A DNA stretch of 48,368 nt from an uncultured Methanosarcinales archaeon (GCA_964589485.1 CAZPRK010000001.1:1-48368), one strand, 5' to 3'. Shown: positions 16,552-45,719, numbered from the stretch's first letter. Notes: generated by a model not told the origin, from the letters alone. Program-made: numbers and translations.

Positions 16552-16566
16552 TTTTAAATAGTTTGC
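16552..16566 (-). promoter_or_regulatory. Putative BRE-TATA promoter for the rpa-pyr genes
   Basis: Minus strand GCAAACTATTTAAAA in the short intergenic region upstream of rpa. Confidence 0.45.
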
Positions 16567-18545
16567 TATACTTTAGTATCTAATATTCTAGAATACTCTT
16601 CAATATTAGAAGGTTTTTCTTCATTTCCTTGAAGATATACACCATAACAATCAGCTTCAGGAACATTAAAGTTCTTACTTTCAGAAGTTGCCATATTTCC
16701 TAAAATAAGAGGTTTCTTATCAAACATACTATCACATTCACCATAATAAAGATTAACTTTTAATTCTGTTTCTTTAATACTGCTAGAATCTACATTCCTA
16801 GTAGGTGAAATTACAGTTAACCCACCATATATATAAGTTATTAAAGGTTTTTCTGGGGACAAATCATCTATTGATTTAACTTTAACATAATCATTATTAC
16901 TATTTTCGGAAATAACTTTTACATAATAATCAATATTATCTTCAACTTCTAATTCAAATTTACTTTTTTCTAATTTAACTATTGTAGGTTCAATATCTAA
17001 ATTTTTAGTATAATGTAAATAATAATCTAAATCATCATAATCAAAAGTAACTTCAAGTGAATTTTCTGCATTTATTTTATCTTCAACTTTAAAACCAACT
17101 TTTTGTAAATTACTTAATTCTAATGCAAATTTATATTCATTACTTAATAAATCAGTTGAACAAAACTTATACACATTCCCTTTATTTTCATACTTCCCTT
17201 TACAATCCCAATATAATGCATTTTTTTTCACACAATTTAATTTATTCTTTGCTTTTCCACATTCATCTAAAATGATAATTGATCTTTTTTTAATATTATC
17301 TAAATATTTAATAAAATCAAAAACTTTAATTTTAACATTAGGTTTTACTTCATATACACCTGAAATTTCACGTTGAGTTGTTTTTTTATCTAACTCAATA
17401 GTTGCTTCTCCTGTAATTTTATTTCCTTGAAAACTAGTCATTATTCTTCTATGTAATTTAATCAATTTATTAGAATATTCGGAATCAGTAGCGTATCCTC
17501 CTTTATGAATTTCAATAAACATCCTTTCAGATGAATCTAAATAATTCATTGCCCCAGAATATCTTTTAAAAGAACTGATTAAGGTAGCATAATCATAAAT
17601 AGACTCACAATAATTATTATAAGCTCTAAATTTTGCTTTCACTAAACAATCATCCTTTCCAAAAGAACATTTATATTTTTTCTGATTACAATCAATTATA
17701 AAATCTTTATTTTTTTCTTGTTGACTTGAAGAATAACATTCATGGGTTTCTCTCAAACTACAACCATTTGTTCCTTCTTTTTTTGAAGTACATTTATATC
17801 CAAACAAATTATAAGCAAAAGTTTCATCAAATTTAGATTGTTTAGTTGCTAATTGACTTCTACCCCATCCACTTTCATGTATAGCTTGTGTTAATGCAAC
17901 ATCCCACGGAACTTTAGTTTCCTTTTGAACATCCAATAAACAACCACCAATTCCAACCAAAGGACTGTTTTCTGATTTTAAAAATCTATCAATTGCATTA
18001 TTACTAGGAATAAAATCAATTTGAACAGGAATATCATTTTTAATATATTCTTTATCAATTTCAGATAAATATTTCATTAAATTTAATGGTTTACCTAAAG
18101 GAAACCGTAAATCATCTTGCGCAATTGCAATCATGTTTAATTGATTTTCAGAATCATATACAAAGTCAATATGGTAATTAGGAGGTGAAGCAATAGGATA
18201 ATTTTTCAAATATTGATTAAATTTTTTACTTACTAAAATAGACATTTTTTGTTTAATATTATTAGGAAAACAATTATTTAGTTTATTAAAACCATCAATT
18301 TTTCCACAATCACTTTGTTGATATAACTCAATTAAACTTTCTTCAAATGCAAATTTAGCAGCAACATCAAAATATAATAAAATATTTTCACTTTTTTGAA
18401 CAGTGTCAAGTACTGCTAATTGTATTTCTCCAATGTAAGAACTTTGAACTTGATGTTTAGGTGAAGCTATCAACAATATTGCTAATGCAGCCATAACACT
18501 AAGAACTACAATTATTAAAGTCATACCTCCTTTTTTATTCATCAT
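16566..18545 (-). CDS. Class III signal (prepilin-like) protein carrying a GH73/FlgJ-type peptidoglycan hydrolase domain and C-terminal beta-sandwich domains
   Basis: MNKKG|GMTLIIVVL N-terminus. GH73 motifs: ALTQAIHESGWGRS, YNLFGYK, TxE, FRAY..Y.ESI.DY, KRY, GGYATD.EY..KL. Confidence 0.9.
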   Translation of the reverse strand: MMNKKGGMTLIIVVLSVMAALAILLIASPKHQVQSSYIGEIQLAVLDTVQKSENILLYFDVAAKFAFEESLIELYQQSDCGKIDGFNKLNNCFPNNIKQKMSILVSKKFNQYLKNYPIASPPNYHIDFVYDSENQLNMIAIAQDDLRFPLGKPLNLMKYLSEIDKEYIKNDIPVQIDFIPSNNAIDRFLKSENSPLVGIGGCLLDVQKETKVPWDVALTQAIHESGWGRSQLATKQSKFDETFAYNLFGYKCTSKKEGTNGCSLRETHECYSSSQQEKNKDFIIDCNQKKYKCSFGKDDCLVKAKFRAYNNYCESIYDYATLISSFKRYSGAMNYLDSSERMFIEIHKGGYATDSEYSNKLIKLHRRIMTSFQGNKITGEATIELDKKTTQREISGVYEVKPNVKIKVFDFIKYLDNIKKRSIIILDECGKAKNKLNCVKKNALYWDCKGKYENKGNVYKFCSTDLLSNEYKFALELSNLQKVGFKVEDKINAENSLEVTFDYDDLDYYLHYTKNLDIEPTIVKLEKSKFELEVEDNIDYYVKVISENSNNDYVKVKSIDDLSPEKPLITYIYGGLTVISPTRNVDSSSIKETELKVNLYYGECDSMFDKKPLILGNMATSESKNFNVPEADCYGVYLQGNEEKPSNIEEYSRILDTKV

Positions 18546-18987
18546 CCACACATCCTTTCTGTTTAAACAAATTTAAAATTAACAAATCATTACTTCCTTT
18601 TATTGGTAAAGTTACACTTGCAGTTTTTATGCTATTTGGACAATTAAAATTATTTTTCCATAATATTTTTTGTTTTTCTTCATTCTTGTATATTGTTAAT
18701 TGCCAATTTTGTTGATAAAATGTAGATTTAAAAAAATCACTTGCATTAATATGAAAATATTCATAATTATCATTTTCAACACTACTATAAATTAAATCAA
18801 TATTCTGTCTTGAAAATTCTCTTAAAATTTCTTGATATTCAATGTCAGTAACTATATTTTCAGTATTTTCATTAATATTAATTTGTTTAACTTCCTGAAA
18901 CCCCATAAAAGAAAATAATAAAATCATTAACAAAATAACTGAAACTACTATTTCCACAATATCATAAGTAATTGCTTTTTTATTCAT
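18535..18987 (-). CDS. Class III signal peptide (pilin-like) protein (150 aa)
   Basis: MNKKA|ITYDIVEIVVSVILLMILL; GAGGTGA RBS; overlaps neighbours. Confidence 0.8.
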   Translation of the reverse strand: MNKKAITYDIVEIVVSVILLMILLFSFMGFQEVKQININENTENIVTDIEYQEILREFSRQNIDLIYSSVENDNYEYFHINASDFFKSTFYQQNWQLTIYKNEEKQKILWKNNFNCPNSIKTASVTLPIKGSNDLLILNLFKQKGCVDDE

Positions 18988-19414
18988 TGTTCACCTCAAT
19001 AAATAATTTACTTTCTTTATTATTTACATAAACTTGCTTTGAAAAAGTTCTTTGTGGTAATCCATTCCAATTTTTAGTTTGAATTACTTTATCATTAAGG
19101 GTCAATCTAAACGCAACACCTTTATCTACATTATAACATTTTGAAAATTGTTCGTTATTAAATTTACCCATATCTATATACAGGGGATAAACTCTATCAG
19201 ATAAAGTATCATACGTAGCAAAACAATACGGAGAATATACAAACCGTTGTACATATACTAAACTCTTTAATTCTTTAGGAACACTTCCTGCATCTTGTAC
19301 ATATTTTGAAGCAACCATAAAAAAAACTACAATAATTAACCCAATAAAAGTAATTCTAATCAAATTAGTTATTGTAAACCAAGTTGTAGTAATACCTTTT
19401 TTATTCAACATCAT
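18980..19414 (-). CDS. Class III signal peptide (pilin-like) protein
   Basis: MMLNKKG|ITTTWF plus hydrophobic helix; 'RFVYSPYCF' motif; start trimmed from 19426 to the ATG after GGAG. Confidence 0.78.
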   Translation of the reverse strand: MMLNKKGITTTWFTITNLIRITFIGLIIVVFFMVASKYVQDAGSVPKELKSLVYVQRFVYSPYCFATYDTLSDRVYPLYIDMGKFNNEQFSKCYNVDKGVAFRLTLNDKVIQTKNWNGLPQRTFSKQVYVNNKESKLFIEVNNE

Positions 19415-20183
19415 AAAACTCCGCAACTGCTAATTGTATATATTGAAAAGATGCAATAACATCTGGCAACTCTAAAATTATACTATTTTCATATTCCAAA
19501 TCATCTTTTGGAATTATAACTAAATCTTCTTGAATAATTTCATTTACAAATAATCTAGTTCTTATATTTTGTAATAAATCATAATTTGAAATACTTTCTT
19601 TAGAAGGAAAATAACCTTTTGGCTTTTCACCTTCCCTTAAAAAAACATTTAAAACATTTTCTTCATCTTTGGGATTTTTAACTAATAAAGAATTGTCTAA
19701 TAATAAAGCTATATCTAATTCATTTTCATTTATATAATAAACTTTATCTAACTTAATTTTTTTATTTGTAAATGATTTTTTAATTTTTCTAGTATACTTC
19801 CCGGGGAAAGTATTACTTATAGCTAAATGTCCACCAAAATATTGAATCACTAAATTATCTTTAATTTCTAAATCCATATCTAAATCACCAATCGGAACAA
19901 AACGTTTAGTTACTTTAGTTGGTTCAAAATCATTTTCTTTCACAGATAATGTATTATCTTTAATTTCGTTAACAAAAGAACTATTATAATTTACAAAAAC
20001 ATTTCCAGGAACTGAATATAAAGTATCTATTAATAATACTTCATCTCCCGCTACATATAATTTATCAACCGCATATCCATTTACAAAAGAGTTTGCAGCT
20101 TGAAGAAAAAACCATCCAACTACTACCCCTAAAACTAATAACAATAACTCTTGCATTGATAAATCAATAGATCCTTTTTTCAT
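19401..20183 (-). CDS. Class III signal peptide protein with a possible degenerate Amidase_3-like C-terminal domain (260 aa)
   Basis: MKKG|SIDLSMQELLLLVLGVVV; 'LLIDTLYSVPGNVFVNY' pilin-like core; alpha/beta C-terminus ending SIILELP...IQLAVAEFY. Confidence 0.75.
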   Translation of the reverse strand: MKKGSIDLSMQELLLLVLGVVVGWFFLQAANSFVNGYAVDKLYVAGDEVLLIDTLYSVPGNVFVNYNSSFVNEIKDNTLSVKENDFEPTKVTKRFVPIGDLDMDLEIKDNLVIQYFGGHLAISNTFPGKYTRKIKKSFTNKKIKLDKVYYINENELDIALLLDNSLLVKNPKDEENVLNVFLREGEKPKGYFPSKESISNYDLLQNIRTRLFVNEIIQEDLVIIPKDDLEYENSIILELPDVIASFQYIQLAVAEFYDVE

Positions 20184-20698
20184 TTTTCACATGGTAATGT
20201 TGTACATATACCCATTGTTTGTTCATCAGTCTTTATAGAATATATTGTATTTGAAGTAATATCTGAAACTAAATTATTATCAACAATAACTCCGCCTGCA
20301 TAACCTTCAATATTTGTAAAAAAGCTTTCAGTCTTAACATCTCTACAAATCATATTACCTTTCAAAGTAGTAGTAAATTCACACCTACTACAAAAACAAA
20401 CACAAGCTTTATTCTGACAAGTTAATGGTTTTTCTATTTCTTTATCTGAAAAACTTATTTCGTTAGTATCTTTATCAAAAAAAAAGAAAGCACTTCCTTC
20501 ATTTAAAATTGAAACAAATTTTCCTGATTCATCTAAATCAAGTTTATTTAATCCTTCATCTAAAGCATTAAAAGCATCTTTTTCAGAATAAGTATTTTGT
20601 GCATCTGTGTAACTTCTAAAAATCCCAAGAAAAGCAAATATCAATATAACTCCCATAATCAAAGAAACTAAAGCTTTAGTTGCCATTCCTTTTTTCAT
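20180..20698 (-). CDS. Class III signal peptide (pilin-like) Cys-rich protein (172 aa)
   Basis: MKKG|MATKALVSLIMGVILIF; 'KPLTCQNKACVCFC'; ATGA overlaps. Confidence 0.8.
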   Translation of the reverse strand: MKKGMATKALVSLIMGVILIFAFLGIFRSYTDAQNTYSEKDAFNALDEGLNKLDLDESGKFVSILNEGSAFFFFDKDTNEISFSDKEIEKPLTCQNKACVCFCSRCEFTTTLKGNMICRDVKTESFFTNIEGYAGGVIVDNNLVSDITSNTIYSIKTDEQTMGICTTLPCEK

Positions 20699-20952
20699 TT
20701 TGCCCTCAATAATATTTCACAATTCCTGCTACTTGTTGGACATTTTTCATGTTCTCCAGAATCACAAGGACATTTATCAATTACATCTTTAATTCCATCA
20801 TCATCAAAATCAGTACTTAATCTTGAAATTTGAGTTTCTCCAACTTCACTTTGTTTTCCTAATAAATTTTTATACACAAACATTAATATTACTGCAATAG
20901 CTATAACTAGTATTGCTTTAACTAAAAATTCGAAAGCTAACCCTTTTTTCAT
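20695..20952 (-). CDS. Small pilin-like protein with a TSP3-like Ca-binding motif (85 aa)
   Basis: MKKG|LAFEFLVKAILVIAIAV; DFDDDGIKDVIDKCPC. Confidence 0.8.
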   Translation of the reverse strand: MKKGLAFEFLVKAILVIAIAVILMFVYKNLLGKQSEVGETQISRLSTDFDDDGIKDVIDKCPCDSGEHEKCPTSSRNCEILLRAK

Positions 20953-21611
20953 TTATTTTCACCACATTTATTTAACTCAACTTCAAAACAATCATCATCC
21001 AATAATCCATCTGCATCACACCAAAGATTTCCCCTTTTTGTTGGAATAAAACACACATGACTTTCGTCAGGGTAATATAACTTTTCAACTGTTCGTTTAC
21101 CAAATTCAATATCATCTATAATAAAATCAAAACCTTCTATTATTATATTATCAACTTCTCTGAAAGTTTTTGAATTTGAAGAAGAACCTTCATTAAAATA
21201 CTTATTATAAAATCCTTGAGCTTCAACTACACATGGAACTTTCCCAGGAATATTTGTATTAATTAAACTTAAACCATCTTCAGTTATTACTTGTACTAAC
21301 ATTCCATCACTTACTTTTGAAACTATGATTTTATTATTTCCTATAATGAGATCATAATCAATAAAACAATTTTTATTTGTTTTTCGTAACTTTTCAAATA
21401 AATCCAAATAAGATTTCTCAAGTCTAGGATTTATCTCGGTATACTCTTGCTTAATATCAACTGTTTCTTGAGGTAATTCTCCTCGTAATAACTCATCAGT
21501 TGAAAGTTCTAACCCAGGTAACCAATATCTAATAAAAATTCCTGCAACTAACACTAATACTAATATTCCTAATGTCCAACCAACAACTTCAGAAAACCCT
21601 TTCTTAGACAT
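20949..21611 (-). CDS. Class III signal peptide (pilin-like) protein (220 aa)
   Basis: MSKKG|FSEVVGWTLGILVLVLV; GAGGT RBS; Cys-containing C-terminus. Confidence 0.8.
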   Translation of the reverse strand: MSKKGFSEVVGWTLGILVLVLVAGIFIRYWLPGLELSTDELLRGELPQETVDIKQEYTEINPRLEKSYLDLFEKLRKTNKNCFIDYDLIIGNNKIIVSKVSDGMLVQVITEDGLSLINTNIPGKVPCVVEAQGFYNKYFNEGSSSNSKTFREVDNIIIEGFDFIIDDIEFGKRTVEKLYYPDESHVCFIPTKRGNLWCDADGLLDDDCFEVELNKCGENK

Positions 21612-21733
21612 TAAAAATACCTCGTTACAATTTCTAACATATCAGTTCTCATTTTACTTATAAAAAAAAGTATAGCGATAAGTAATAACAACAACAATAA
21701 AATCCCCAATATTTGATTTCTTGCAAACTCCAT
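21611..21733 (-). CDS. Uncalled 40-aa single-TM micro-protein
   Basis: MEFARNQILGILLLLLLLIAILFFISKMRTDMLEIVTRYF*. GGTGA RBS 7 nt upstream; its TAA overlaps the next ATG; fills the gap exactly. Confidence 0.75.
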   Translation of the reverse strand: MEFARNQILGILLLLLLLIAILFFISKMRTDMLEIVTRYF

Positions 21734-21744
21734 CTTAATTTCAC

Positions 21745-22923
21745 CTAATTTTGAATATTACAATAATTTTGTACTCTTTGATATGGACTAACCAATACAT
21801 AATTTAAATCATCACTTAACTTTGCAGTTTCACTCCCTACTATAGTTCCTATTGTTCCTAAAGTAGCTGATCCCGCTACTGCTCCCGCCACAGCTCCACT
21901 GACAGTAAGTGCCACAGGTGTTAATAATCCTCCTGAAGTGGCAGTTATTATTGTACCCACAAATGTTCCTGCAATAGCTGCTCCAGTAGTAGCGCCGCCC
22001 CATGTACCAAGAACTCCTCCTAATAAAGAAGTTGAAGCCATAACACCTTCTAAAGCATCAGTATTTGCAACAAAAGTTATTGCATAAACTTGTTCATCTT
22101 CAACAAAATTTTCCAATATACCATCAAATACAACTCTTCCTGGTCCTTTTGACCTTTGAACATAATCTAAATAATTATAGTGATTTTCTTTTTTGACGCA
22201 ACATTTATTTCCAGAAGAACAACCCCACGTAGAATACTCAGCAGTTCCTTCTCCACAAGAACCACTACATTCTCCGCCATTATTTAAACAAGTATGTCCA
22301 CTAAAACAACAACCATTATCAGTTACATATTTAGTTTTACATTTATTACTTTTTTCATTAAACTTAAAACCAAGGGTAGATAAACAATCTTCTTCTGATT
22401 CAAATTTACTATTGCCAACACAAAATCCACCACCTAATGTACAACCATCACTTTCAGCATTTACAACTTTTACTTGATCTACCATAAAATTAATTTGTTC
22501 AGTTACAGGAAATCTATCAATATCTTTCCCATTATTTTCCAAATCAGTTATTGTAGTTAAGTAACATACATTACAATTATTATCCCACAAACTCAAATCT
22601 AATGCATTCCTTGATAATGCACCTTCTAAATTCATGTACCAACATTGAGAAATTAAATCTGCCATATTTTTTTGTACTTCTTTTACTTCTTTTCCTTTGA
22701 AAGGAATATCTTTTTGTTGAGCTTTACATTTTGGTTTAAATAAAACTTGCTTACCTAATATTGCAGCATTATTAGCTTCAGCCATACTTATTCTACAAAT
22801 TTCTTCATTGAAATTATCTTGACTTTTATCTAAAACAGTTTTTTCTAAATTTAATACTACAATACTACTTACTAAAACAATAATTAATCCTACAATAAAA
22901 GAAGCTCTTGCTTTTTTATTCAT
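21745..22923 (-). CDS. Pilin-like protein with Cys-rich (defensin-like) modules and a C-terminal glycine-zipper hydrophobic segment (392 aa)
   Basis: MNKKA|RASFIVGLIIVLV; 'MADLISQCW' core; CLNNGGEC...C...CC; GGVLGTWGGATTGAAIAG...GAVAGAVAG. Confidence 0.82.
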   Translation of the reverse strand: MNKKARASFIVGLIIVLVSSIVVLNLEKTVLDKSQDNFNEEICRISMAEANNAAILGKQVLFKPKCKAQQKDIPFKGKEVKEVQKNMADLISQCWYMNLEGALSRNALDLSLWDNNCNVCYLTTITDLENNGKDIDRFPVTEQINFMVDQVKVVNAESDGCTLGGGFCVGNSKFESEEDCLSTLGFKFNEKSNKCKTKYVTDNGCCFSGHTCLNNGGECSGSCGEGTAEYSTWGCSSGNKCCVKKENHYNYLDYVQRSKGPGRVVFDGILENFVEDEQVYAITFVANTDALEGVMASTSLLGGVLGTWGGATTGAAIAGTFVGTIITATSGGLLTPVALTVSGAVAGAVAGSATLGTIGTIVGSETAKLSDDLNYVLVSPYQRVQNYCNIQN

Positions 22924-23030
22924 GCTCCAACCGCCACCGAGAATTTCTGTCTAATAATCCATAGAACAAAGGCAAATATTGCTAAATATATTATAATCTG
23001 AATCCAACTCATTTGCCCTCTTTTAAACAT
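22920..23030 (-). CDS. Uncalled 36-aa minimal prepilin-like peptide
   Basis: MFKRG|QMSWIQIIIYLAIFAFVLWIIRQKFSVAVGA*. Class III motif, ATGA overlap with the 392-aa gene, canonical promoter directly upstream. Confidence 0.8.
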   Translation of the reverse strand: MFKRGQMSWIQIIIYLAIFAFVLWIIRQKFSVAVGA

Positions 23031-23071: not shown

Positions 23072-23308
23072 CTAGCTTTTCAAGTTAATACAACACATTC
23101 TTTCTTCGCCACAATCCACATCTGGAATTATTTGATCACACTGTCCATCTAATGGAAGACACGCCCCACCTTTAGTAAAACATGAACTTAAATCTTCAGA
23201 AATATCGCTAGTTTTACTTTGAAAAATTGCTAAAAGTATTACCAAAACAACTATAGCAATAACTGCCATAATTATTACATTAAACGGTAATCCTTGAGCT
23301 TTTTTCAT
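23072..23308 (-). CDS. Small archaeal type IV pilin-like protein with a Cys-rich head (78 aa)
   Basis: MKKA|QGLPFNVIIMAVIAIVVLVILL; CFTKGGAC...C...C...CC. Confidence 0.85.
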   Translation of the reverse strand: MKKAQGLPFNVIIMAVIAIVVLVILLAIFQSKTSDISEDLSSCFTKGGACLPLDGQCDQIIPDVDCGEERMCCINLKS

Positions 23309-29732: not shown

Positions 29733-29733
29733 A

Positions 29734-38700: not shown

Positions 38701-41700
38701 GTCCATTCTTACTTTAAAAAAATCAATAGGATATTCTAAATTACTAGAATCATCTTCTGAAAACATATAAACTGTATAAATTCCATCTTTATATTCATCC
38801 ACTATTTTATCAAATTCTAAATCAAATTTACCTTCAACTAATTGCTTAGGATAAGATACTTGCGATGGTTCTTCATTAATTCCTTTTGTATCTTTAAAAA
38901 TTGTATAATAAGTTACAAATTCATTAATACTAGGTAAATCATCTTTAATAAATAATTCTAAACTAGGATTCCGTGTACAATTTGCACCATGACAATAAAC
39001 CTTAGAAGAATCATAATAAGTTGTAGGAGATTTTTGATCTAAAACACAATCCCTATCAGTATCTGAACAATCTCTTTTATAATTATCACTATCTTTATAA
39101 CAATATTCTTCCTCTTTATTCCATTTACATCTTCCAATATCTAAAGAATCTTTACTTGGGTTAAGGAATTCATGAGTTCCGCTTACTTTTAACTCTTCAC
39201 TCCAAATTACATCAACATCTAACTCTTCTCCACCTGTACAATCTTGTTCAGTGTCATAATCTTCACAACCAATTTCAGTTTTAGCAGTACAAGATCCGCA
39301 AATTCCGTTTTCATCCATATTATCACAGTAACATGAACCATATAATCCACACCTTGTTTTATCACAAACTCCATAAACATCATTTAATCCAGGTTGAGTA
39401 CATAAATTACAATTATCTTCTTTTTCTACTTCTTCACATACTCCTCCTCCTAATTCATCATATCTAGGGTCAGCATTCCATTGACAATTTCTGTTTAAAC
39501 ATCTATTGTTATACTTTCCATCTATATCTCCGTCTTGTTTTAAATTAGGATTTCCTTCACAAGCTCTTTTACTTTGATAATTATAACAACTAGTTACACC
39601 ACTACAAGGATAATAAGTATCTACTGAACTATATGTAGAATCATAATAACATAAAGGAATATTTTCACATGCTTCTGAAACTTCATTTGTTTGTAAAAAA
39701 TATGAAACTTTTGTACTCACTTCAGGACTTGCAAACAATCCTAATGGAGATGAACAAGTTGAACAATCACTTTGATAACTACAAAATGCATCTCCTTCTG
39801 AAGTTGGTCCAAGACATTTAAGACCACTTATTTTATTACAATCTTGAACAGCTGCATTTGCTTTTTTATTTCCATTACATTGCCAAACTTTATTATCGTC
39901 ACAAAATCTTCCACTTTGCTTTAAACAAGAATCATGGAAAGGCCCAACACATACTTGTTCAGATGAAACAATACCAGCATATTCATCATCATCATATTTA
40001 GCATTAACTGTATAACAATATTCAATTCCACCTTCAATTTCAGTATCTGTATATTCTAAAACATTAGAATTAAATTCTTCAATAGGAATTAAATTAGTAT
40101 CGCACACATTAGGATTTTCAACAGAATCATCATAACATTTACTTAAAGAAATATTCATAGGTAAACAATCATACCCCCAAGTTAAGTCTACTTGAGGTTT
40201 ATTTTCAATTATATTTATTTCAAGCCTAGGTTTAGGTCTATCTCTTCCACAATGAATTGGTTCAAGTTCAAAATTTTCATTCTGTTTATTTCCATCTAAA
40301 GTAATAGATTTAGTTTGAGGTTCAAAACCATTTGCTTTAGCTTCAACAAAAATACTACCTTCATATACATTTTCAACAATGTAATTTCCACCTTGTACAG
40401 TTTTTGTTCCAAAAGCTCCATCTATAAGTATAGTTGCTCCTTCGATCCCTTCACCTTCTTTTGATTCTACTTTCCCCTCTAACCGATATTTAACTTTTTC
40501 AAATAATTGGATAGTATATTCTTTATCACCATCTATATAAAAATCAATTATATCATTTTTTAATGCATAAGGATAATCATGATATCCTTTATAACTTACT
40601 TCTAGTTTATAAGGGTCTGTAGACATTTCTACATTAAAAAAAATAAACCTTCCATTATCTTTAACATAATAAATTTTACTTTCAGAATAAGTTCCATCTA
40701 AATAAAATTCAACTTTTGCTCCAGAAATGAGTTCATTGTTTTCATCGACTACAATCCCAGTAACAACTGCACCTTGTTTTTCTACACATTGTTTTTTATA
40801 ACAAACTTTATTAGCTGCACATCTTAATCCACTACATGCATCATCTTCACAATTAGCTCCATCAATTCCATCTTCATCATTATTCTCATCATCATCACAA
40901 ATTTCTTTATTACAGCTACTTGAACAAGTATCTGGTAACTGACCATTATTACAATTTTTAATTTTCTCCTTTGGACAACAAGTATCTAAAGAATTATCAC
41001 CATCTGAATCATAAGAATAACTTTCTTTACAATTTGTTCCATCTGCAGTATTACATTTTTGTTGTGTTTGAAAACAATCAGAATCCATACAATCAATTAA
41101 ACCATCCCCGTCATCATCAACTCCATTACTACAGATTTCTCCACAATTACAACCGCTATCACTTTTTCCAACAAAACAATCAATTTTTCCATCACAATCG
41201 TTATCTATCCTATCATTACATAATTCTTCTCCACTTTCACCTACATGATCTTCAGAATCATCAAGATTTACTGATTTATAGGTAAAAGTATCAACATTAG
41301 GAAGGTAAGCTTTAGGGAAAGAAGCTTCAAGTAATGAACCTGCACAATCACTATCACAAATATCTATTGCTAAATCTCCATCATCATCTACTTTATTACC
41401 ACAACCATTCTCGAATTCATTTTCACTTTTACATTCATCATCAGCATAATTAAACAAACCATCACAATCATTATCAAAATTATCATCACAAATTTCAGAA
41501 GTTTTAGCTAAAATTCCTTCAACAGGTTCATTATCTCCGTAATTATAACTTAAATGCGTCCAACAATCTTTATCACAACCGTCTACATAACCATCTAAAT
41601 CCTCATCTATACCATTCCCACATAAATCTATAGAATTTTCAGAAGTACTTTGTCCACCTTGTGCTTCAGGTGCTTTACATGTACACCCATTTGTTTCACC

Positions 41701-42543
41701 TGGAGAAATACAAGTATTTAATCCGTCACAATCATTATCAGTCTCACATGTTTCTTCAGCTTCCACAATTAAATTACCACAAACAGATTGTACAATACCT
41801 AAAGTAAAATCTAAAACATTTTCATCTTCATCTAAGTCAAGTAATATTGAATTTGAAGCACTTTCAAAACCAAATTTAGAAACTTCAACTAAAAATTGAT
41901 TTAATTCAGTAAAAGTAAGCGTATATGTTCCTTCTTTACCAGTTATAACACTTTTTTCATTTGATTCTGTAGCTTCTACTAAAGCACCTTCAATAACTAC
42001 ATCTTTTTCACTACTTGTAACAGTTCCAGTTAAAGTATACGATTCACTTGCTTGATTACACGCAGTATCACAAGAACCTTGAGATGAATAAACATAAGTA
42101 GTTTCTGCATTAACACAACAATATTGTCCTACTTGCGCATCTATTCCATTACAAGAACATGAACTTGACAAAGATCCTTCACAAGAAGATAAACTAGAAG
42201 AACAAACTGTAGGAATCATTTCACTTGCACAAGTTGAAGCACAAGCATCTTCATCAATAACTCCATAATTATAATCACCTAATTTAGTATCGCAGCCTTT
42301 TTTTGTAGATAATTCTTGACCATTTGTCAAACAACAACATTCTAAACTCATTTCTGGATCAGTACTGGGACATTCATCATGAAAAATAGCATCCTCATCA
42401 CTTTCACATATAGCTTGAGAAACTTCTTCTACACCATAATATCTTCCACCGTCATCACAACAAGGAACTGATACAACAGATTGAGAATTAGCTAATAGAA
42501 AAATAGTTACAATAAGTAATACACTAATCCCTCTTTTTCTCAA
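29734..42543 (-). CDS. Giant secreted Cys/Asp-rich surface protein/adhesin (4269 aa)
   Basis: TTG start with AGGGTG RBS; MRKRGISVLLIV signal; three carboxypeptidase-regulatory-like (prealbumin) domains; FN3/Ig-like domains; many CxDGxDNDxDGxxDCxDxDC modules; Asp-rich tandem repeats; no C-terminal TM. Confidence 0.88.
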   Translation of the reverse strand: MRKRGISVLLIVTIFLLANSQSVVSVPCCDDGGRYYGVEEVSQAICESDEDAIFHDECPSTDPEMSLECCCLTNGQELSTKKGCDTKLGDYNYGVIDEDACASTCASEMIPTVCSSSLSSCEGSLSSSCSCNGIDAQVGQYCCVNAETTYVYSSQGSCDTACNQASESYTLTGTVTSSEKDVVIEGALVEATESNEKSVITGKEGTYTLTFTELNQFLVEVSKFGFESASNSILLDLDEDENVLDFTLGIVQSVCGNLIVEAEETCETDNDCDGLNTCISPGETNGCTCKAPEAQGGQSTSENSIDLCGNGIDEDLDGYVDGCDKDCWTHLSYNYGDNEPVEGILAKTSEICDDNFDNDCDGLFNYADDECKSENEFENGCGNKVDDDGDLAIDICDSDCAGSLLEASFPKAYLPNVDTFTYKSVNLDDSEDHVGESGEELCNDRIDNDCDGKIDCFVGKSDSGCNCGEICSNGVDDDGDGLIDCMDSDCFQTQQKCNTADGTNCKESYSYDSDGDNSLDTCCPKEKIKNCNNGQLPDTCSSSCNKEICDDDENNDEDGIDGANCEDDACSGLRCAANKVCYKKQCVEKQGAVVTGIVVDENNELISGAKVEFYLDGTYSESKIYYVKDNGRFIFFNVEMSTDPYKLEVSYKGYHDYPYALKNDIIDFYIDGDKEYTIQLFEKVKYRLEGKVESKEGEGIEGATILIDGAFGTKTVQGGNYIVENVYEGSIFVEAKANGFEPQTKSITLDGNKQNENFELEPIHCGRDRPKPRLEINIIENKPQVDLTWGYDCLPMNISLSKCYDDSVENPNVCDTNLIPIEEFNSNVLEYTDTEIEGGIEYCYTVNAKYDDDEYAGIVSSEQVCVGPFHDSCLKQSGRFCDDNKVWQCNGNKKANAAVQDCNKISGLKCLGPTSEGDAFCSYQSDCSTCSSPLGLFASPEVSTKVSYFLQTNEVSEACENIPLCYYDSTYSSVDTYYPCSGVTSCYNYQSKRACEGNPNLKQDGDIDGKYNNRCLNRNCQWNADPRYDELGGGVCEEVEKEDNCNLCTQPGLNDVYGVCDKTRCGLYGSCYCDNMDENGICGSCTAKTEIGCEDYDTEQDCTGGEELDVDVIWSEELKVSGTHEFLNPSKDSLDIGRCKWNKEEEYCYKDSDNYKRDCSDTDRDCVLDQKSPTTYYDSSKVYCHGANCTRNPSLELFIKDDLPSINEFVTYYTIFKDTKGINEEPSQVSYPKQLVEGKFDLEFDKIVDEYKDGIYTVYMFSEDDSSNLEYPIDFFKVRMDTKEAAFTVEATDVNIYTKKFGNAEYKYSEVTFDINLVDGPGYCSADLYKAGSDQIWDSLKIENEFGESFKRKYEDLADGTYYYDVTCEDAAGNTYNKILETRTEADRRIRNAKPYTNIHTSEAILSVDTTANVDCRYYDDLTIEEYDSSFGTLLQKNIILEEDLDDIVDFYRHTSDQLDLESDTYKYKVICNDENNPFKEILFTVDDKSPTTQVLVPGTDEVYNLGDWKEAHEFELKCVDEKFNSKNYNHLGELGGFGCDKINYCFGVDCEPDLVFELPININEGDEICYQSVDKGENLENKICTAVNVDNTPALISISLNELGKTEVPIVLRNNKYFVTLTSDEDLKEVKLSYEVFGASASSDIILTSTNPKLWKGSFEVPLTTNFDDIEGDANFVLSAFDLHGVESTIEQVDQIKSFEIDTKGPPAPSIFYPTGNQNQPSNKITVLGFAHEEQSNFKIRTYYTTENFKDQYDASISNAWDFIETTSFSENSVVDTVELQRSIDSGNLIYLKGNKANFEGYIDLPGHDLTDKSYYKIESNEANDEFTVLTIFPPLIKGVDENKLVNLHSKQYPTGWFSAEVPLLIGKNYLYSVELDQYGNLGTKTDYYEIVSDPNPPIITIDAPPAKVSAIAPELIKATIFEEDSLLDLSSLKIELKSRRSGENEVFTQEFKCSDEELKCTDQFGGTLEETERKAILTLTKEFPVSIYEYTVYATDTVGSLGEESNWFEVDAEVPHNPIIDLEPGITVNRIGFTNVANPIINLNFLDDMGKTVTITKLTLQDENKNFIDVSYVAEEVIPSFDTITTFIQGDEATLNLNSEDYDLSFKILQDVEITNAQFKVTGLMNNDAYAKKPWVNFGTDIVYDFITNDVAFNGEVFRDFTTNLNTLLSNCEIDDEGMCTIPVSIGDGFGNLIDAPGALKISDLIISYEPNENAKKRNTYTRYNLPLTGDLIESKYFINITANKETDDGQSKDTIVDASFIYTTEPAKLNIIMDNPTMDLSPKFRLESNLPIKCGYTLDDKEEFNTGNEYFLNFDSEPLPERKITHLNVKEKAGIEGNVPNEYIENPKYLDANHTLNFKCEGVFNGELEKEYTYQLVHPKQNRLFYGDGDTIVFQFFLEEGTSKSLIGADLSNLDSTFSSDKYITWEEDGVYYLSYEIDEDNEHQDGWKFIYLTYPGAVREKVVVHLKNTFTNVDLENSISCNSKPGYFFNEENCPYDFDVQNMYAFNKEFGNEEFNEEGFDCEGENAVNTRACASIYYKIRNLKDFQQSIVLDDPCYNDQFCMFKIRDLGVTGFYNKYASTTGNLKVRFEMSNSNTVKNNFQVYDFTGTFGQSTFTNCEGGEFIKSDISGEIKCATPENIRALMNLKIIEAIEGENKPKVQVITDVEGNNRQAVTELELFEIRNNKKASLVNSEALLNNGVYSYCNDGVDNDLDSPFEFDKYGGDKADCRDDDCNGLIVNNLGNKCELNTELSCNDGFDNDMDDPLILKSSGYAQLIEDYQDGTFISPKGRFLDCFDTDCFKQAGSKVTAEACLVKETNCNNGNNDDFDFGKYGQPRISKSYQDLSDGIALTDCLDVDCDGRSGFANCKITGGCLCEYSIDTTVDSDNDGIPDVQDDDLDGDGTKNGNDPDADNDGEVDDNYKDIVSDPDIDNDGLLNVNDEDIDGDGIENGDDPDANGDGVVDDKYKDVVIDVEKDTDGDGIVDINDKDIDNDGILNGDDPDANGDGIVDDRYKDVVPDKTVDTDNDGKLDINDEDIDNDGILNDDDPDANGDGIVDNRYKDIIKDVEKDTDGDGNLDINDDDIDGDGILNGNDPDANEDGEIDTQYEDIVDDPDTDNDGILDIDDNDIDGDGIENKHDPDANGDGIVDLRYDDIVFDSITDTDGDGTVDIDDEDIDNDGILNGDDPDANGDGRVDKKYENIVLNPLGDNDGDGKLNINDGDIDGDGINNSDDLTPVGPLGEGKNYPSSCKDEFDNDADGSVDCYDAGSCWGAGGRSDNEITNPCPAFENNNPAWCHNGKDDDFDDGAGNLDRDESSGMDCEDYDCRGIEADTIDGKRTCPVTEGQTKSFGFDAAQCFDGKDNDLDAPDKVYSGGSTANGIDCRDVDCNGVTKPNTEQSCEFEKEVSCDDGFDNDGNGFCDYLGCNGLPPDPACTTGNCYPSPITESITLDSCMASPSYLATGNEDAAVDNVANCADSDCDGQICGIGSTCKNNNCETSLNEVCNNGLDDDNDGLKDCQDSDCTSDCPNTDLTGLTLPDEVWEYNDDLSFGGSFGKVEEGTVIASYNKYVKKGDFFKLNLKGTEELGMTFFVGDDQNPLSNLNDNFNLDSNSNKQDSVSYTVKTYGGQIEPFTDNARVKIDSTFAYKATTVGQSRINLIGRVGTDQEKISTLNIKVLENVAPEFEELIVSTNPEGALITALASDSGTGIYYCNFRMYDKTTDNLITQNEHNTDCIWDYQDGLDSGIYYVEVDVFDGAGNSDSETGYDISRTFVKEGPSLSSIDGLYSTRKYFNKYKRDDLEVTMTFESDNGFNEGKCIVDISDVNNVKTDGGQFDLTLLDNNKAECKVDLPLNGYDDSLYDFAVSVTDAGGNRIITKRNPFWVCNFLRTPEGIYRCRDECTQQGLNVDIIAPVEGEVFEYPLINVKGTAPPNVILKAYVNNEYTARLQSQAKSTGDFNFNLLALSRGQNTITVLAVDELTYNTGEDSVMVIYNSEGPVVNINIEVTDSYEQAIVTFSIFDDDQDGLPDAWEDLKGLDKTYYDSNNKYNSTHTWMQYYLLTDALDIENSIFNFTRLDNIKTDEVNEEMRIDVSTTSDGNVMTANLPILEVGDYSIGVISIDQEGEAGETEFIKFHYDPLAPRPYLDPIPPSITKNESYEFRGYVTSVVPISKVELTLANSPNFKSELLTLDENNKFAHNIYLFNDENKETTFNDYEVLAYNGERYNDKTGLIIHDEKFRGVESARLVSAKERKADANIGISFEQY
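32830..33879 (-). repeat. Seven full plus one partial 45/47-aa Asp-rich (TSP3-like Ca-binding) tandem repeats
   Basis: Consensus DTDGDGxxDINDxDIDxDGIxNGDDPDANGDGxVDxxYxDIV, also visible as DNA repeats (gcatcaggatc...). Confidence 0.9.
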
Positions 42544-42584: not shown

Positions 42585-42600
42585 ATTTATAAATGTTGCG
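42585..42600 (-). promoter_or_regulatory. BRE-TATA promoter for the giant-protein operon
   Basis: Minus strand CGCAACATTTATAAAT about 40 nt upstream of TTG 42543. Confidence 0.6.
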
Positions 42601-42629
42601 ATGAGAAATAATAAGTAAATATAAAGAAT

Positions 42630-45600
42630 TTAATCATCAGAGTCATCATCAGAAGTAGGAGTAAAAATACAATTTTTACAAGTGCCCCCATTTACAGATT
42701 TTTTTAATGTTCGTTGAAGATAACTAATTCCATCACAAATAGCATTATCTCCATCATTTTTACATTCACAAGAAGAAGTTATTCTTTTCGTACAACCTCG
42801 GTTACTTGGACCACCACATTGCGCATTACATTGATACAAACTTCCACTTTTTTCATATTCATAAGCCTCATTACAAATTCCATCAGCATTTGGGTCTTTC
42901 AAAAAACTTTTTTCAAAACTTTCACCTGGTCCATAAGCATAACAACCACCGCCAACTTTAGAATCTCCTGAACCCGGACAAGTATTAACATTACACTCAT
43001 CATTACCAGGTGCACAAGGTCCAAAACAAGATTCATCTTCACCACTTTTTTTATCAGGACAAATATTTACAACATTATATTTTTCAATCACTTTTCCAGT
43101 ACAAACATTACCTCTATCTCCTCCACATTTTTGAGTAAAAGTTCTTTTGTAAATATCATTAGATATTTTATTTTGCTTTTCATTATTTGAAATAATTTCT
43201 AAAGTTTCAAATTCATTAGCTTCAACTATATCTCTCCAATCATCACCTTCAAATTCAGGATTAGTAAAAGGATAACATGAATTTCTATCATCTTGAAAAC
43301 AAACAGTATCTTCATTTGCAATAGTCCCCCATTGTAAAGTATCCACTTCTTGATTTAATCTACTTAACCAGTTTGCGACATTTACTAAATATTCTTTATT
43401 ATTTTCATTTTCTAAATTTTCATTAATCAACCTATCAACAGAACCATCTATTAATTTCTTTTGAAACCTTTGATTAGAAGATGTTTCTCGTACTGCAGCA
43501 TAAACATTATTAATACATGCTTGAGTACCATCGGTAATAATATTCGTAAAACCACCAATAGTTTCGATATTTACAGGATTAAAAACAGTAGGTGAAACAG
43601 AATTCATAATTTCATGGTTTTGAGAAATTTCATTAAGATTATGACAAGCAGTAGTAGATTTTTTATAACCAAGAGGGGCATATTGAGACATATCTTCAGT
43701 GACAAAAAGCGCAATCGAATTTTTATCCCTTTTATTAAAACGGTTTAATTTTAAATTTTCTCCACCATCAGTATCTTCCCTAGCAACAACCCATACTTGA
43801 TCATAAGCATCTAAAGTTCCAGGAAGTATAGTTTTAAGATCAACACTAAACCCATTACCCTCAAGTAAATTTTCAAGTTTTTCATACTTATTAATTTGAT
43901 CACCTTTAATAAAAACTAAAATGTTTTTACCATTTGTTTCAGTCGCACCAGAAACACAACAAGAATGATCACCTAAAAAATCCATATAAGGATTAGTTTC
44001 ATCATACTCATCATGAAGTTTAATAAAAGGATAACTTGGCAAATTACTTTTATGAGGTAAACAAGGATATACTTCAACATTAAAAATTTCAGTCCCTAAT
44101 GTTTCCACACTATCTTTAACAGTTAATTGAATCTCATGTGATTGAGAAGCTAAATCATCACCAACATCTTCAAAAGGAAGATTATCCATTTTTATTATAT
44201 CAAAAACAGGAGGAACGATTGCAATTTTTCCACTAATATCAAAAAATTCAGTTAAATCTCTCCAATTATATTCAACATTTTGTCTTCCAGGAATTTTACT
44301 TTCACTTGAATTTAAAATAAAAGGATCTTCAATAGAAGCACTTAAAGTTGGAATGTCATTAAAAATATTATGTCCAAATGCTTTTACAATAGGAACATCT
44401 AAAATTTTAAATTTAATATTTTGCCAATCTTTTACACTAGAACCTTCTTCTTTAACACTAAATTTAACTTCATGATCTCCAACGTGTCCCATCGTATTTA
44501 ATGTATAAATAGGACCAATACCAGTATCAACATTATATTCAACTTCAACCCATTCATCAACAACTATTCCTCCTGAAACTGTTTCTAATTCAAACTCCAA
44601 TTCATCCCCATCAGGATCAACCGCTTTAGGTTCAAGAACTATTTCATCTCCTTCATTGACAACATAATGAAACCCTTCACTTGCCCATGCTCCACCTGGT
44701 GCAGTTCCTTGAATTAAATCTAAAATAGGAGGTCTATTTTTAACTGCAAATTTTAATCCTAATTCTTGACCTTTTATTAATGACCTAGAATCAGTAACAT
44801 AAATTAAATAATCAGAACCAATCTTAGATTTTTGAACATCAATAAAATTATCCCAAAGTAAAGTATTTTTTCCACTTTTTAATCCTAAATGATCTTTAAG
44901 AAAATCAAAATCAAATTTTTTAATTTCTTGATCAACTATTTTTGCAGCAAGTTCAAAAACTTTTTTAATTCTTACATTTTTTTTAATATCTAAAGAAATA
45001 TTTTTCAAAAAAGGTTCTTGATCAGGTAAAGAAAATTCAAAAGGATAATTTAATTTAACTAAAACATCATCTTCACCATACAATACGTCTACGGAAGGTT
45101 TACCTTTTTCTACAAGTTCATAATTAAATTTAGTTCTAATTACATCTAAATCTAAACATTTTTTTGATCTATTTGCAATATAAAAACTCAACAATTCTTG
45201 TAAAGTAAAATCATCAAGTATACCCCCATACGAAGAAACATCACATGTTGAAACTAAACTAGAACTAGGATTATTTGGACCTTTTTTATCACAAATCCTA
45301 GGAAATTCTCTATCACCTAAATTATTTACGTCATCAATTTTAGCATTCGGTGTATAATACCCATAGTCATTATCTGTTTCAAGTTCATTATAAATCCCAT
45401 AATTTACTTTTTGTCCATCAACCACCATAAATTTAGTTTCAGCTATTTTTTCAATAACATCTTCATCATCAGAAGAATCTTCATACAAAATTCCACCTTG
45501 TTCTGCAGCTCTAACTAAAGCTTCATTGGTTGCTTCCTCTAAACAAGAACTAATGTAATATTCCAATGCAGTAGTTTGTAACAAATCAGTTGTTAACAAA

Positions 45601-45719
45601 TTAACTTGTTGTTTAATTTGTTGTTCTGTTGTTATTTGCGCAAATATGAATATCCCTCCAAATACAGAAACTACTACTACACCTAATAAAATAAAAGCCG
45701 TAATTTGCGCTCTTTTCAA
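42630..45719 (-). CDS. Large class III signal peptide protein: pilin-like N-domain, Ig/PKD-like domains, GIFT/DUF4350-like domain, Cys-rich C-terminus (1029 aa)
   Basis: MKRA|QITAFILLGVVVV; 'YISSCLEE...QGG'; NRPPILD; 'YEKLENLLEGNGFSV...YDQVWV...NKEYLVNVANWL'; GAGGT RBS. Confidence 0.82.
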   Translation of the reverse strand: MKRAQITAFILLGVVVVSVFGGIFIFAQITTEQQIKQQVNLLTTDLLQTTALEYYISSCLEEATNEALVRAAEQGGILYEDSSDDEDVIEKIAETKFMVVDGQKVNYGIYNELETDNDYGYYTPNAKIDDVNNLGDREFPRICDKKGPNNPSSSLVSTCDVSSYGGILDDFTLQELLSFYIANRSKKCLDLDVIRTKFNYELVEKGKPSVDVLYGEDDVLVKLNYPFEFSLPDQEPFLKNISLDIKKNVRIKKVFELAAKIVDQEIKKFDFDFLKDHLGLKSGKNTLLWDNFIDVQKSKIGSDYLIYVTDSRSLIKGQELGLKFAVKNRPPILDLIQGTAPGGAWASEGFHYVVNEGDEIVLEPKAVDPDGDELEFELETVSGGIVVDEWVEVEYNVDTGIGPIYTLNTMGHVGDHEVKFSVKEEGSSVKDWQNIKFKILDVPIVKAFGHNIFNDIPTLSASIEDPFILNSSESKIPGRQNVEYNWRDLTEFFDISGKIAIVPPVFDIIKMDNLPFEDVGDDLASQSHEIQLTVKDSVETLGTEIFNVEVYPCLPHKSNLPSYPFIKLHDEYDETNPYMDFLGDHSCCVSGATETNGKNILVFIKGDQINKYEKLENLLEGNGFSVDLKTILPGTLDAYDQVWVVAREDTDGGENLKLNRFNKRDKNSIALFVTEDMSQYAPLGYKKSTTACHNLNEISQNHEIMNSVSPTVFNPVNIETIGGFTNIITDGTQACINNVYAAVRETSSNQRFQKKLIDGSVDRLINENLENENNKEYLVNVANWLSRLNQEVDTLQWGTIANEDTVCFQDDRNSCYPFTNPEFEGDDWRDIVEANEFETLEIISNNEKQNKISNDIYKRTFTQKCGGDRGNVCTGKVIEKYNVVNICPDKKSGEDESCFGPCAPGNDECNVNTCPGSGDSKVGGGCYAYGPGESFEKSFLKDPNADGICNEAYEYEKSGSLYQCNAQCGGPSNRGCTKRITSSCECKNDGDNAICDGISYLQRTLKKSVNGGTCKNCIFTPTSDDDSDD

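Follow-up and report, generated by a model that had tools for sequence, protein, structure and literature searches.

The Epd pilus of Methanococcus maripaludis, a 'system 1' archaeal type IV filament, and the type IV filaments surveyed in DPANN archaea are the described systems closest to the gene cluster presented here. In M. maripaludis, the substrates of the peptidase EppA carry leaders of 5–13 aa that end in Gly and are followed by Gln at +1 and a conserved Glu at +5, and the small pilins measure 67–76 aa (PMC3875500). According to a 2026 survey, DPANN archaea seldom have ordered type IV filament loci: ATPase and platform genes stand together and the pilin genes are scattered (PMC13705601). 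The same survey counts 2942 DPANN genomes with type IV filament components, most of them with the core set, and 1990 Nanobdellati genomes that encode system-1 (Epd-like) pilins. Nanoarchaeal ATPases whose pilins were not identifiable have also been described, as have large PilY-like adhesins in methanococcal type IV pilus loci (Makarova et al. 2016, PMC4858521). Here, we analyzed a 48,368-nt stretch of DNA from an assembly labeled uncultured Methanosarcinales archaeon (GCA_964589485.1 CAZPRK010000001.1:1-48368; hereafter the window, meaning this whole stretch). Its operon at 16566-45719, minus strand, we read with a probability of roughly 0.6 as the subunit operon of an Epd/Tad-like ('system 1'-like) type IV filament of a small-celled Woesearchaeota-type DPANN archaeon, equipped with modular effector pilins.

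Two further bodies of work bear on this locus. In bacteria, the modular pilin, a carrier pilin joined to an effector module, is an established concept, and more than 1,200 such proteins, with a predicted peptidase module among them, are described (PMC8179133). For Woesearchaeota and Pacearchaeota, large murein lytic transglycosylase proteins have been reported and bacterial hosts or prey proposed, and DPANN archaea are portrayed as limited in biosynthesis (PMC8204110, PMC9723730). Archaeal murein hydrolases were found in 175 of 3706 genomes in a 2025 study, prominently in Nanoarchaeota and with a Sec or Tat signal in only 32%, and two hydrolases of Halogranum salarium, one of them with PF01832, were studied for bactericidal activity (PMC12352652). 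The idea of murein degradation by Woesearchaeota and the modular pilin of bacteria are thus already in print. Our literature searches turned up no paper on the operon itself, on the families of its core or on archaeal class III proteins that carry murein hydrolases, although some of these families or proteins may be listed in PMC13705601 (S4/S5 Tables, S10 Fig), PMC8204110 (Supplementary Table 3) and PMC12352652 (S2 Table).

The operon comprises 19 consecutive minus-strand genes, as a preceding sequence-only reading of the window had counted: 17 open reading frames (ORFs) of 78–4269 aa and two mini-ORFs (36 and 40 aa) situated in gaps. Measured with the ATG nearest each leader as the start, 12/18 junctions overlap: ATGA overlaps of 4 nt account for six and 1-nt overlaps (TGATG, TAATG) for two, and the remainder are of 8–44 nt; the six non-overlapping junctions are gaps of 11–86 nt. 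There is little paralogy among the encoded proteins, which are unrelated beyond their N-termini; only p78 and p91 are paralogous (E 7e-6). The number of Cys residues is even in all 17 large proteins (range 0–164), which fits a set of predicted disulfide-bonded extracellular proteins.

To describe the common N-terminus, we used an ad hoc rule, neither FlaFind nor SignalP, that looks for [KR][GA] in the first 30 aa and then for a 19-aa window with a Kyte-Doolittle mean ≥2.0 starting within 8 aa. All 17 large ORFs and one of the two mini-ORFs of the run conform to this rule, compared with 1/14 ORFs outside it (Fisher p 6.8e-8). In 15 proteins and the 36-aa mini-ORF, a short basic stretch ends in Gly or Ala (KKAQ, KKGQ, KRAQ, SRGQ, KRGQ, KKG-x, KKA-x) and a very hydrophobic helix follows (19-aa mean 2.1–3.7); with the two giant proteins A4269 and A1227 set aside, the sixteen class III-like leaders counted earlier are thus recovered. 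Gln+1 is present in 8/16 of these leaders (KKAQ three times, KKGQ twice, and SRGQ, KRAQ and KRGQ). A4269 and A1227 pass the rule weakly (means of 2.1–2.2), and among 17 A1227 orthologs with an N-terminal helix, KR-G/A/S occurs in six and Gln in none. Since the pass is marginal and the motif is not kept in the A1227 orthologs, we read both proteins as probable ordinary Sec substrates.

Related loci were collected with p336 (24618..25628, minus strand like all operon genes; SRGQ...QFNW), the most conserved operon member. A search with this protein gave 15 full-length relatives, and a six-sequence alignment was then used for a profile scan of genome contigs, which yielded 37 loci in metagenome-assembled genomes (MAGs) of Woesearchaeota/Nanoarchaeota. 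Their titles read Woesearchaeota (13), Nanoarchaeota or Nanoarchaeia (7), "archaeon" (5), "uncultured Methanosarcinales archaeon" (11; a third-party assembly label) and "Rhodobacter sp." (1; a 2-kb contig). None of the 37 loci belongs to the species of the window; the highest identity reached is 38%. ORFs called in these loci and compared with the window proteins by BLASTP (E ≤ 1e-3) showed a recurring order: a p1029-like gene, a giant, an A1227-like gene, p160, p336, p166, p162, one to three small pilins, a p392-like gene and further pilin-like genes. Synteny among Woesearchaeota/Pacearchaeota MAGs had been named as a check on the sequence-only reading, and the core gene order is indeed conserved across the 37 related loci.

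The core genes account for most of this conservation. p336 is matched in 37/37 loci, p166 (24136..24636, MKKGQ, likely ATG at 24618) in 29, p162 (23651..24139, MKKAQMEILG) in 28, A1227 (26064..29747) in 26, p160 (25585..26067, MKKGQ) in 24 and A4269 (29734..42543) in 19. These are followed by p78 (12 loci), p91 (9), p392 and p1029 (8 each) and p260 and p148 (4 each), and p220, p85, p172, p150, the last operon gene and the adjoining gene for archaeal replication factor A (RPA) are matched only in L001 and L002. These two loci are the closest relatives and have the whole operon in common with the window. Many loci end at contig ends; at least 5 kb downstream of the core is visible in 17, of which ten carry three or more additional class III-like ORFs and the others are short forms with the core only. 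Against a 50%-identity library, a p336 profile built from 47 sequences retrieved 2213 representatives (E ≤ 1e-3), of which 1231 reach E ≤ 1e-30; the core therefore represents, as judged by this profile, a very large unannotated family.

The contig itself is archaeal and of Woesearchaeota-type DPANN origin as far as its gene content tells, because the RPA gene adjoins the operon directly downstream, 20/37 related loci carry Woesearchaeota, Nanoarchaeota or Nanoarchaeia titles, and the flanks of related loci hold the archaeal housekeeping genes for thermosome, RtcB, archease and tRNA-intron endonuclease. A bacterial origin in the Candidate Phyla Radiation (CPR) was considered and rejected on the same RPA neighbor and flanking genes, in agreement with the DPANN assignment made at first sight. 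In the ESM Atlas, look-alikes of p336 and p392 fall into 'hypothetical protein' clusters of Nanobdellota/Woesearchaeota. The window is AT-rich (GC 0.24–0.33), as is the genome (GC about 28%).

Across these families, the leader motif is kept among orthologs at 23–52% identity. [KR][GAS]Q is found in 28/29 p162 orthologs, and in an alignment of 28 p162 sequences (23–52% identity) Gln+1, Glu+3, Gly+6 and three Cys are invariant. Gln+1 and Glu+6 are conserved to at least 90% in 30 aligned p166 sequences, and [KR][GAS]Q occurs in 18/24 orthologs of p160, 10/12 of p91 and 6/8 of p78. The p336 family has xFNW in 145/159 members, with [KR][GAS] at most nine residues upstream in 142/145, mostly four residues before xFNW. 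This pattern supports the view that the leaders behave as conserved class III signals with Gln at +1, as in the Methanococcus EppA substrates. In a profile-profile comparison of p166 and p162 (hhalign), only the N-terminal 28 columns align (probability 88.5). A common N-terminus with unrelated heads is the typical pilin pattern, and the restriction of the alignment to the N-terminus therefore conforms to a pilin-like mode of conservation.

Structure models were made with AlphaFold2 from family alignments for two of the 16 members. The p166 model (mean predicted local distance difference test score, pLDDT, 92.7) has a helix at residues 2–56 followed by a small alpha/beta head with four strands; the p336 model (pLDDT 89.7) has a helix at 19–70, a beta-rich domain and a C-terminal helical bundle. 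The predicted N-terminal helices of 55 and 52 residues continue about 30 residues past their hydrophobic part. A long N-terminal helix is a hallmark of pilins, and 52–55 residues far exceed what a membrane anchor needs.

Compared with the Epd pilus, the operon has several properties in common, as far as the cited sources describe that system: short leaders ending in Gly with Gln+1, very short major-type pilins (67–76 aa in Epd; 78 and 91 aa here) together with several larger minor pilins, pilin genes that can sit apart from the ATPase and platform genes, and large adhesins in such loci. Unlike the Epd pilus, it shows no profile match to Epd pilin families, often Ala or Ser at −1 and no conserved Glu+5; its four core families and their folds are undescribed, enzyme modules are placed on pilin-like proteins, and the host lineage is DPANN. 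The four adjacent, co-occurring pilin-like genes p160, p336, p166 and p162, one of them larger (336 aa) and with adhesins beside them, also resemble GspH-I-J-K of the type II secretion system and PilHIJK plus PilC/PilY1 of the type IVa pilus. For those systems, PMC8179133 presents GspK as a pilin into which a domain has been inserted, and the adhesin PilY1 as being held by four minor pilins. The resemblance to such minor-pilin complexes of the tip or of priming is confined to layout; neither sequence nor fold matches.

The proteins next to the core would suit a surface structure. A4269 is a giant repeat protein with a Sec-like leader, 164 Cys and 20% Asp+Glu; it shows CarboxypepD_reg (97.8 bits in three stretches) and weak Ig-like/Big_13 matches. 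A1227, a large Cys/Asp-rich repeat protein, has a TSP_3 match below the cutoff (21.4 bits vs 25) and ends in a C-terminal transmembrane anchor (residues 1043–1061) followed by a basic tail; TSP3_bac or TSP_3 stands above the cutoff in 16 of 32 large locus proteins (A1227 orthologs). At the head of the operon, p1029 (42630..45719; MKRAQ, TTG start) is a large pilin-like protein of no Pfam family with a conserved N-terminal domain of about 400 aa and a Cys-rich C-terminal extension. Its N-terminal 340–590 aa or so align to head-of-operon proteins in 8/37 loci, five of the eight with [KR][GAS]Q. Two candidates for the large proteins were rejected. One is the Pam pilus, suggested by a weak PamR match of A4269 (E 0.0036, 16.2 bits vs 300), since this donor-strand-exchange system is described as exclusive to CPR bacteria; the other is a lytic transglycosylase, which appears neither in A4269 or A1227 nor in the 32 large proteins of related loci.

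The last operon gene (16566..18551) encodes a 661-aa pilin-like protein (MNKKGG) that carries a glycoside hydrolase family 73 (GH73) module (Glucosaminidase, PF01832; 17442..17933). The domain covers residues 207–370 (E 2.4e-24; 86.8 bits, cutoff 30.2), and the best NCBIfam matches are to GsmA and FlgJ models, all below the equivalog cutoffs. Among PDB sequences, the module finds Salmonella FlgJ (5dn5) at E 1.8e-14, and the alignment brings both ESGWG and GYATD into register; in GH73, E-S-G-W-G is the motif of the catalytic Glu and is accompanied by a Y-A-T-D motif. The region of the beta-hairpin, where a second acidic residue is expected, holds a Cys-rich insert of about 40 aa between the motifs that does not align to FlgJ, and Pfam finds no peptidoglycan-binding domain in the protein. 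Altogether, the GH73 module is apparently intact, and the claim of a GH73 muramidase on a pilin-like protein stands as it was first made.

 The orthologs in L001 (649 aa) and L002 (524 aa) align to window residues 6–174 and 368–448, the one in L001 additionally to 461–657, and its first two aligned blocks abut. Because both orthologs are without the module and the flanking blocks abut in L001, the stretch of about residues 175–367 is a lineage-specific insertion into a conserved pilin-like scaffold. The whole protein as query found one full-length relative, P0002 (a 511-aa marine metagenome fragment with 44% identity and PF01832 at E 1.5e-24), and six bacterial-type domain-only matches, while residues 1–200 alone found only the protein itself; the GH73 module is common only to the window protein and P0002.

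Of the 17 loci whose distal part is visible, L014 from a Woesearchaeota MAG is the only one with murein hydrolase domains. Here, a 612-aa class III-like protein matches VanY (29.9 bits vs 25) and, below threshold, Glucosaminidase (22 bits vs 30.2), and the next gene, for a 349-aa pilin-like protein, matches Amidase_3 (69.6 bits vs 27). The N-terminus of the 349-aa protein aligns with residues 2–69 of p260 of the window. Since the 612-aa protein shows no pairwise similarity to the GH73 protein of the window (best E 1.0), hydrolase modules were, by this comparison, recruited at least twice and independently onto presumed pilin-like carriers. The amidase fold that had been suspected in the window itself did not hold up: Pfam gives no amidase match for any window protein, p260 included, and Amidase_3 is confined to L014.

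Such carriers have partial precedents. As in the modular pilins PilB and PilC of Streptococcus sanguinis, a pilin-like N-terminus is joined to a module for display (PMC8179133). Unlike these, which are defined by an IPR012902 N-terminal domain unmatched here, the module is inserted in mid-scaffold instead of appended, is a murein glycosidase and belongs to an archaeon. Woldo and Danwoldo of H. salarium likewise combine an archaeal source with murein hydrolase domains of bacterial type, PF01832 among them (PMC12352652), but are described there as having Tat/Sec signals and peptidoglycan-binding domains and as acting in soluble form, whereas the protein of the window has a class III-like leader, a pilin-like scaffold within a pilin-like operon and no peptidoglycan-binding domain. 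The fam00969 proteins of Castelle 2021 and those of Vigneron 2022 come from the same lineages, with murein as the proposed target and giant extracellular proteins, as far as they are described; they differ in carrying GH23 instead of GH73, and the giants of the window are without a transglycosylase domain.

Several results weigh against the filament interpretation or against its effector part. The window proteins match none of the Pfam or NCBIfam models for pilins, archaellins or class III signals, in searches at E ≤ 10 for 13 proteins and at E ≤ 1 for 19, and the same profiles match none of 21 small-pilin family members. Foldseek searches of the PDB with the p166 and p336 models returned no match at E ≤ 0.001 (best E 0.023 and 0.026, TM-score at most 0.25), and hidden Markov model profiles of p166, the small pilins, p336 and p162 found only generic transmembrane matches or nothing among PDB sequences. 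Glu+5 is not conserved, Glu being at +3 in p162, at +6 in p166 and absent in the others. Secretion ATPase, platform protein and prepilin peptidase families are lacking in the 30 window ORFs and among 238 proteins (48+103+55+32) scanned with Pfam in the 37 loci, a set drawn up without plus-strand ORFs <120 aa, minus-strand ORFs <150 aa, ORFs assigned to core families, L006:19619-20848 and L036:7640-8917 (both run off their locus) and L016:64-5901. On the side of the cargo, the orthologs in L001 and L002 have no Pfam match to Glucosaminidase even at E ≤ 0.1, and a hydrolase is present in 2/18 operons with a visible distal part (the window and 1/17 loci). The nearest approaches to known prepilin models are slight: the bacterial prepilin N-terminal methylation domain is matched only by p150 (NCBIfam prepilin-type, E 0.64, 10.6 bits vs 86), and among the Bas models p166 matches BasB at E 0.0099 with 15.8 bits against a cutoff of 230.

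That no machinery genes were seen near the operon does not count heavily here, because a scattered layout is usual in DPANN archaea according to PMC13705601. The filament reading draws its support from the conserved leaders, the length of the helices, the logic of the operon and the literature context; it stays provisional because homology to known pilins was not detected and the machinery is unseen. Membership in the pilin superfamily is provisionally argued from leader, helix and operon logic instead of detectable homology. The type IV filament subunits proposed at first are thus backed by the leaders and, in the two modeled members, by the 52–55-residue helices, but not by pilin profiles or solved pilin folds.

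The assembly could be pictured as follows. The pre-proteins would insert in the membrane, where a class III signal peptidase encoded elsewhere would cut after Gly/Ala, and an ATPase and a platform protein, likewise encoded elsewhere, would polymerize the subunits. The short Cys-knotted p91 and p78 may form the shaft, and p160, p336, p166 and p162 may assemble into a complex for priming or at the tip, which would connect to the large Ca-binding/Ig-like adhesins. Modular minor pilins displaying effector modules would come from the distal genes, which vary between lineages, the effector here being a GH73 muramidase that might nick bacterial murein at the point of contact.

What the hydrolases are for is a separate question. 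They might serve murein foraging instead of attack, with GH73 in the window and VanY, amidase and GH73-like domains in L014 digesting dead-cell or shed peptidoglycan for amino sugars and peptides, and the filament or surface scaffold merely keeping the enzymes cell-bound. We regard this as possible, if rather unlikely. The glycosidase-like, amidase and D,D-peptidase domains of L014 make up a depolymerising set and not a single breaching enzyme, a sporadic cargo (1/17 loci) is what a niche-specific nutritional add-on would lead one to expect, and DPANN archaea are described as limited in biosynthesis (PMC8204110, PMC9723730). On the other hand, the operon invests heavily in adhesins, the attachment of the enzyme to a pilin-like scaffold would favor action on a cell that is already bound, and bactericidal use has been studied for hydrolases that archaea secrete, a PF01832 enzyme among them (PMC12352652); none of these points separates foraging from attack.

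The small pilins bear on the form of the structure. p91 (23326..23601; MYKKAQ) and p78 (23072..23308; MKKAQ) are paralogous candidate major subunits with four Cys in the head of p91 and a six-Cys, defensin-like head in p78, and genes of their type often stand in two or three tandem copies (L002, L013, L019). The p78 head shows a beta-defensin-like pattern, C-6-C-6-C-8-C-5-CC, within a family spacing of C-6-C-3..9-C-8..11-C-5..6-CC, and matches Inhibitor_I68 (27.1 bits vs a cutoff of 25); among 21 small-pilin relatives, four match Inhibitor_I68, three defensin-like (AtDEF-like) models (best E 8.4e-6) and two Defensin_beta_2, with the caveat that matches between small Cys-rich domains are easily overrated. 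As a lead, the candidate shaft subunit p78 may thus bear a small six-Cys defensin-like knot.

Only two short subunits of shaft type stand among members that are mostly unique, minor-type and big-headed with little paralogy, and this composition would also suit an envelope-embedded pseudopilus or bindosome-like scaffold, in which processed class III proteins form a short structure that holds adhesins and enzymes at the surface or contact zone. Class III leaders on functional non-filament proteins have a precedent in the Sulfolobus bindosome (cited in PMC3875500), the weak BasB match of p166 lies in its N-terminus, and A1227 is itself membrane-anchored. We nevertheless think a pseudopilus unlikely: the BasB match is far under its cutoff, and the retention of short p91/p78-type genes, often in tandem copies, is the pattern of major subunits.

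The sequence-only reading had gone further and proposed a dedicated and conserved attack pilus, whose defining function would be to open bacterial envelopes by displaying a muramidase, an amidase and a glycine-zipper element. Parts of it are borne out, namely the archaeal DPANN origin, the class III-like subunits and the GH73 module on a pilin-like protein, to which L014 adds a second, independent case with other murein hydrolases. The glycine-zipper element stands halfway: p392 (21745..22923; MNKKAR, 18 Cys) does have a Gly-rich hydrophobic C-terminal segment, and this C-terminus is kept in 8/37 loci, but it matches no family. In L014, a p392-like protein (L014:12918-14018) has a sub-threshold Apolipoprotein L match (23 bits vs 25.9, residues 246–297) in the region that is the counterpart of the Gly-rich hydrophobic tail of window p392. 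The conserved cargo, however, is not found, as the two closest orthologs are without GH73 and 16/17 distal-visible loci are without a recognisable murein hydrolase; the window has no amidase, and the conserved core (p160, p336, p166, p162 and the adhesins) has no lytic domain. We therefore hold a conserved attack pilus to be doubtful and a sporadic feature to have been overstated; in sequence terms, the hydrolase cargo is a sporadic add-on and not a defining feature. The opening of bacterial envelopes is something we infer, and the hydrolase hints that the structure touches bacteria. Because the conserved core is without a lytic domain and 16/17 loci are without a murein hydrolase, adhesion or contact is the more likely general role of the system.

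That the proteins are plain surface proteins on uncleaved type II signal anchors, with MKK-G/A arising from AT-rich starts and the positive-inside rule and no filament at all, would agree with the want of pilin profile or fold matches, with the lack of machinery genes in the window and the 37 loci and with the Lys-rich starts expected at about 28% GC, but is very improbable, since it leaves unexplained the invariant Gln+1/Glu+3/Gly+6 of 28 p162 sequences and the fixed [KR][GAS]-x4-xFNW spacing in p336, and the Sec-type surface proteins of the window are without the motif (1/14), the predicted helices extend 30 residues beyond the hydrophobic part and the 36-aa gene encodes a leader and helix and nothing more.

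The remaining operon genes lie around and downstream of p392. The 36-aa mini-ORF (22920..23030; MFKRGQ plus one helix) overlaps the start of p392 by 4 nt, and leader-plus-helix mini-ORFs directly upstream of the p392-like gene recur in L001, L002, L014 and L017. The 40-aa mini-ORF (21611..21733) encodes a single helix without the K/R-G/A motif and has a counterpart before the p220-like gene in L002. Next come the pilin-like p220 (20949..21611; MSKKGF), the short p85 (20695..20952; MKKGL), with an Asp-rich TSP3-like motif (TSP_3 18.2 bits, below cutoff), p172 (20180..20698; MKKGM, 8 Cys), p260 (19401..20183; MKKGS), p148 (18980..19426; MLNKKGI) and p150 (18535..18987; MNKKAI).

Some related loci depart from this plan. 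L037 holds two p336-p166-p162 modules in opposite orientation on one contig (389-2394 minus; 9329-12001 plus). In a 'long' operon form seen in some loci, other genes are inserted between the core and the distal pilin-like genes. These include a MazE/AbrB-domain protein (L012:14933-15820 and L018:5930-6811, minus) and an AsnC/Lrp-type regulator (L012:15922-16404, L018:6922-7407 and L019:14856-15335, plus); both may be local regulators.

The neighborhood of the operon in the window shows further features. Just upstream of the operon, 45774-46202 and 47590-48366 encode paralogs whose function is not known (40% identity, E 1.2e-25), with no class III-like leader and no family match in Pfam or NCBIfam; a scaffold gap of 100 N at 46863-46962 breaks the ORF 46769-47608. 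On the other side, 13127-15544 encodes an 805-aa PyrB-PyrI fusion of aspartate carbamoyltransferase catalytic and regulatory chains (Pfam; NCBIfam PRK13376) with a C-terminal extension of about 325 aa without family match, beside genes for a carbamoylase-type M20 amidase and orotidine monophosphate (OMP) decarboxylase. At 10134-11147, this archaeal contig encodes a lipid enzyme of bacterial type, with a glycerol-phosphate acyltransferase domain (PlsB/PlsC-type), which is consistent with the bacterial fatty-acid genes reported in Woesearchaeota (PMC8204110). Two Sec-type surface proteins (3586-5649 and 6818-9622), the CARDB/Ig-like neighbors, have in common a C-terminal tail of about 70 aa past the membrane anchor (42% identity, E 1.3e-12), which may be a conserved cytoplasmic module. 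A tRNA scan of the window found no genes. Counts of sigma-70 promoters and terminators equal the shuffled expectation (70 vs 70.0 and 1 vs 1.8), a comparison that is uninformative for an archaeon.

The operon points to a large, uncharacterised DPANN surface system. A bolder and, in our judgment, improbable extension of the filament reading is that p160-p336-p166-p162 and the giant adhesins make up the central part of a host-contact organelle that is specific to DPANN archaea and derived from a type IV filament. Thousands of Woesearchaeota/Nanoarchaeota lineages would have this organelle, its folds would be without a solved relative, and its distal slots would take interchangeable effector pilins. 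Under this extension, the contents would be GH73 here, VanY, amidase and GH73-like domains in L014, the defensin-like six-Cys heads of the shaft and the Gly-rich, membrane-active tail of p392. If true, delivery of wall- and membrane-active modules onto bacteria would be demonstrated for an archaeal filament for the first time, and the idea of DPANN archaea as cross-domain episymbionts or predators of bacteria would gain molecular support. Since the hydrolase is an occasional add-on and not part of the core, the 'attack' reading does not generalise to the whole family. Hydrolases on pilin-like carriers would nonetheless offer a display route for some of the archaeal murein hydrolases that lack a Sec/Tat signal, as tallied in PMC12352652, and such carriers would mark particular lineages as likely touching bacteria rather than archaea. 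Most Woesearchaeota and their relatives have not been brought into culture, it is not known which hosts they live with, and no function is predicted for the majority of their lineage-specific proteins. In this setting, the operon ties a very large orphan family, p336 with its 2213 representatives at 50% identity, to a recognisable type of machine, a probable set of type IV filament subunits accompanied by adhesins, and makes it a concrete, conserved target for antibodies, proteomics and cryo-electron tomography in enrichments.

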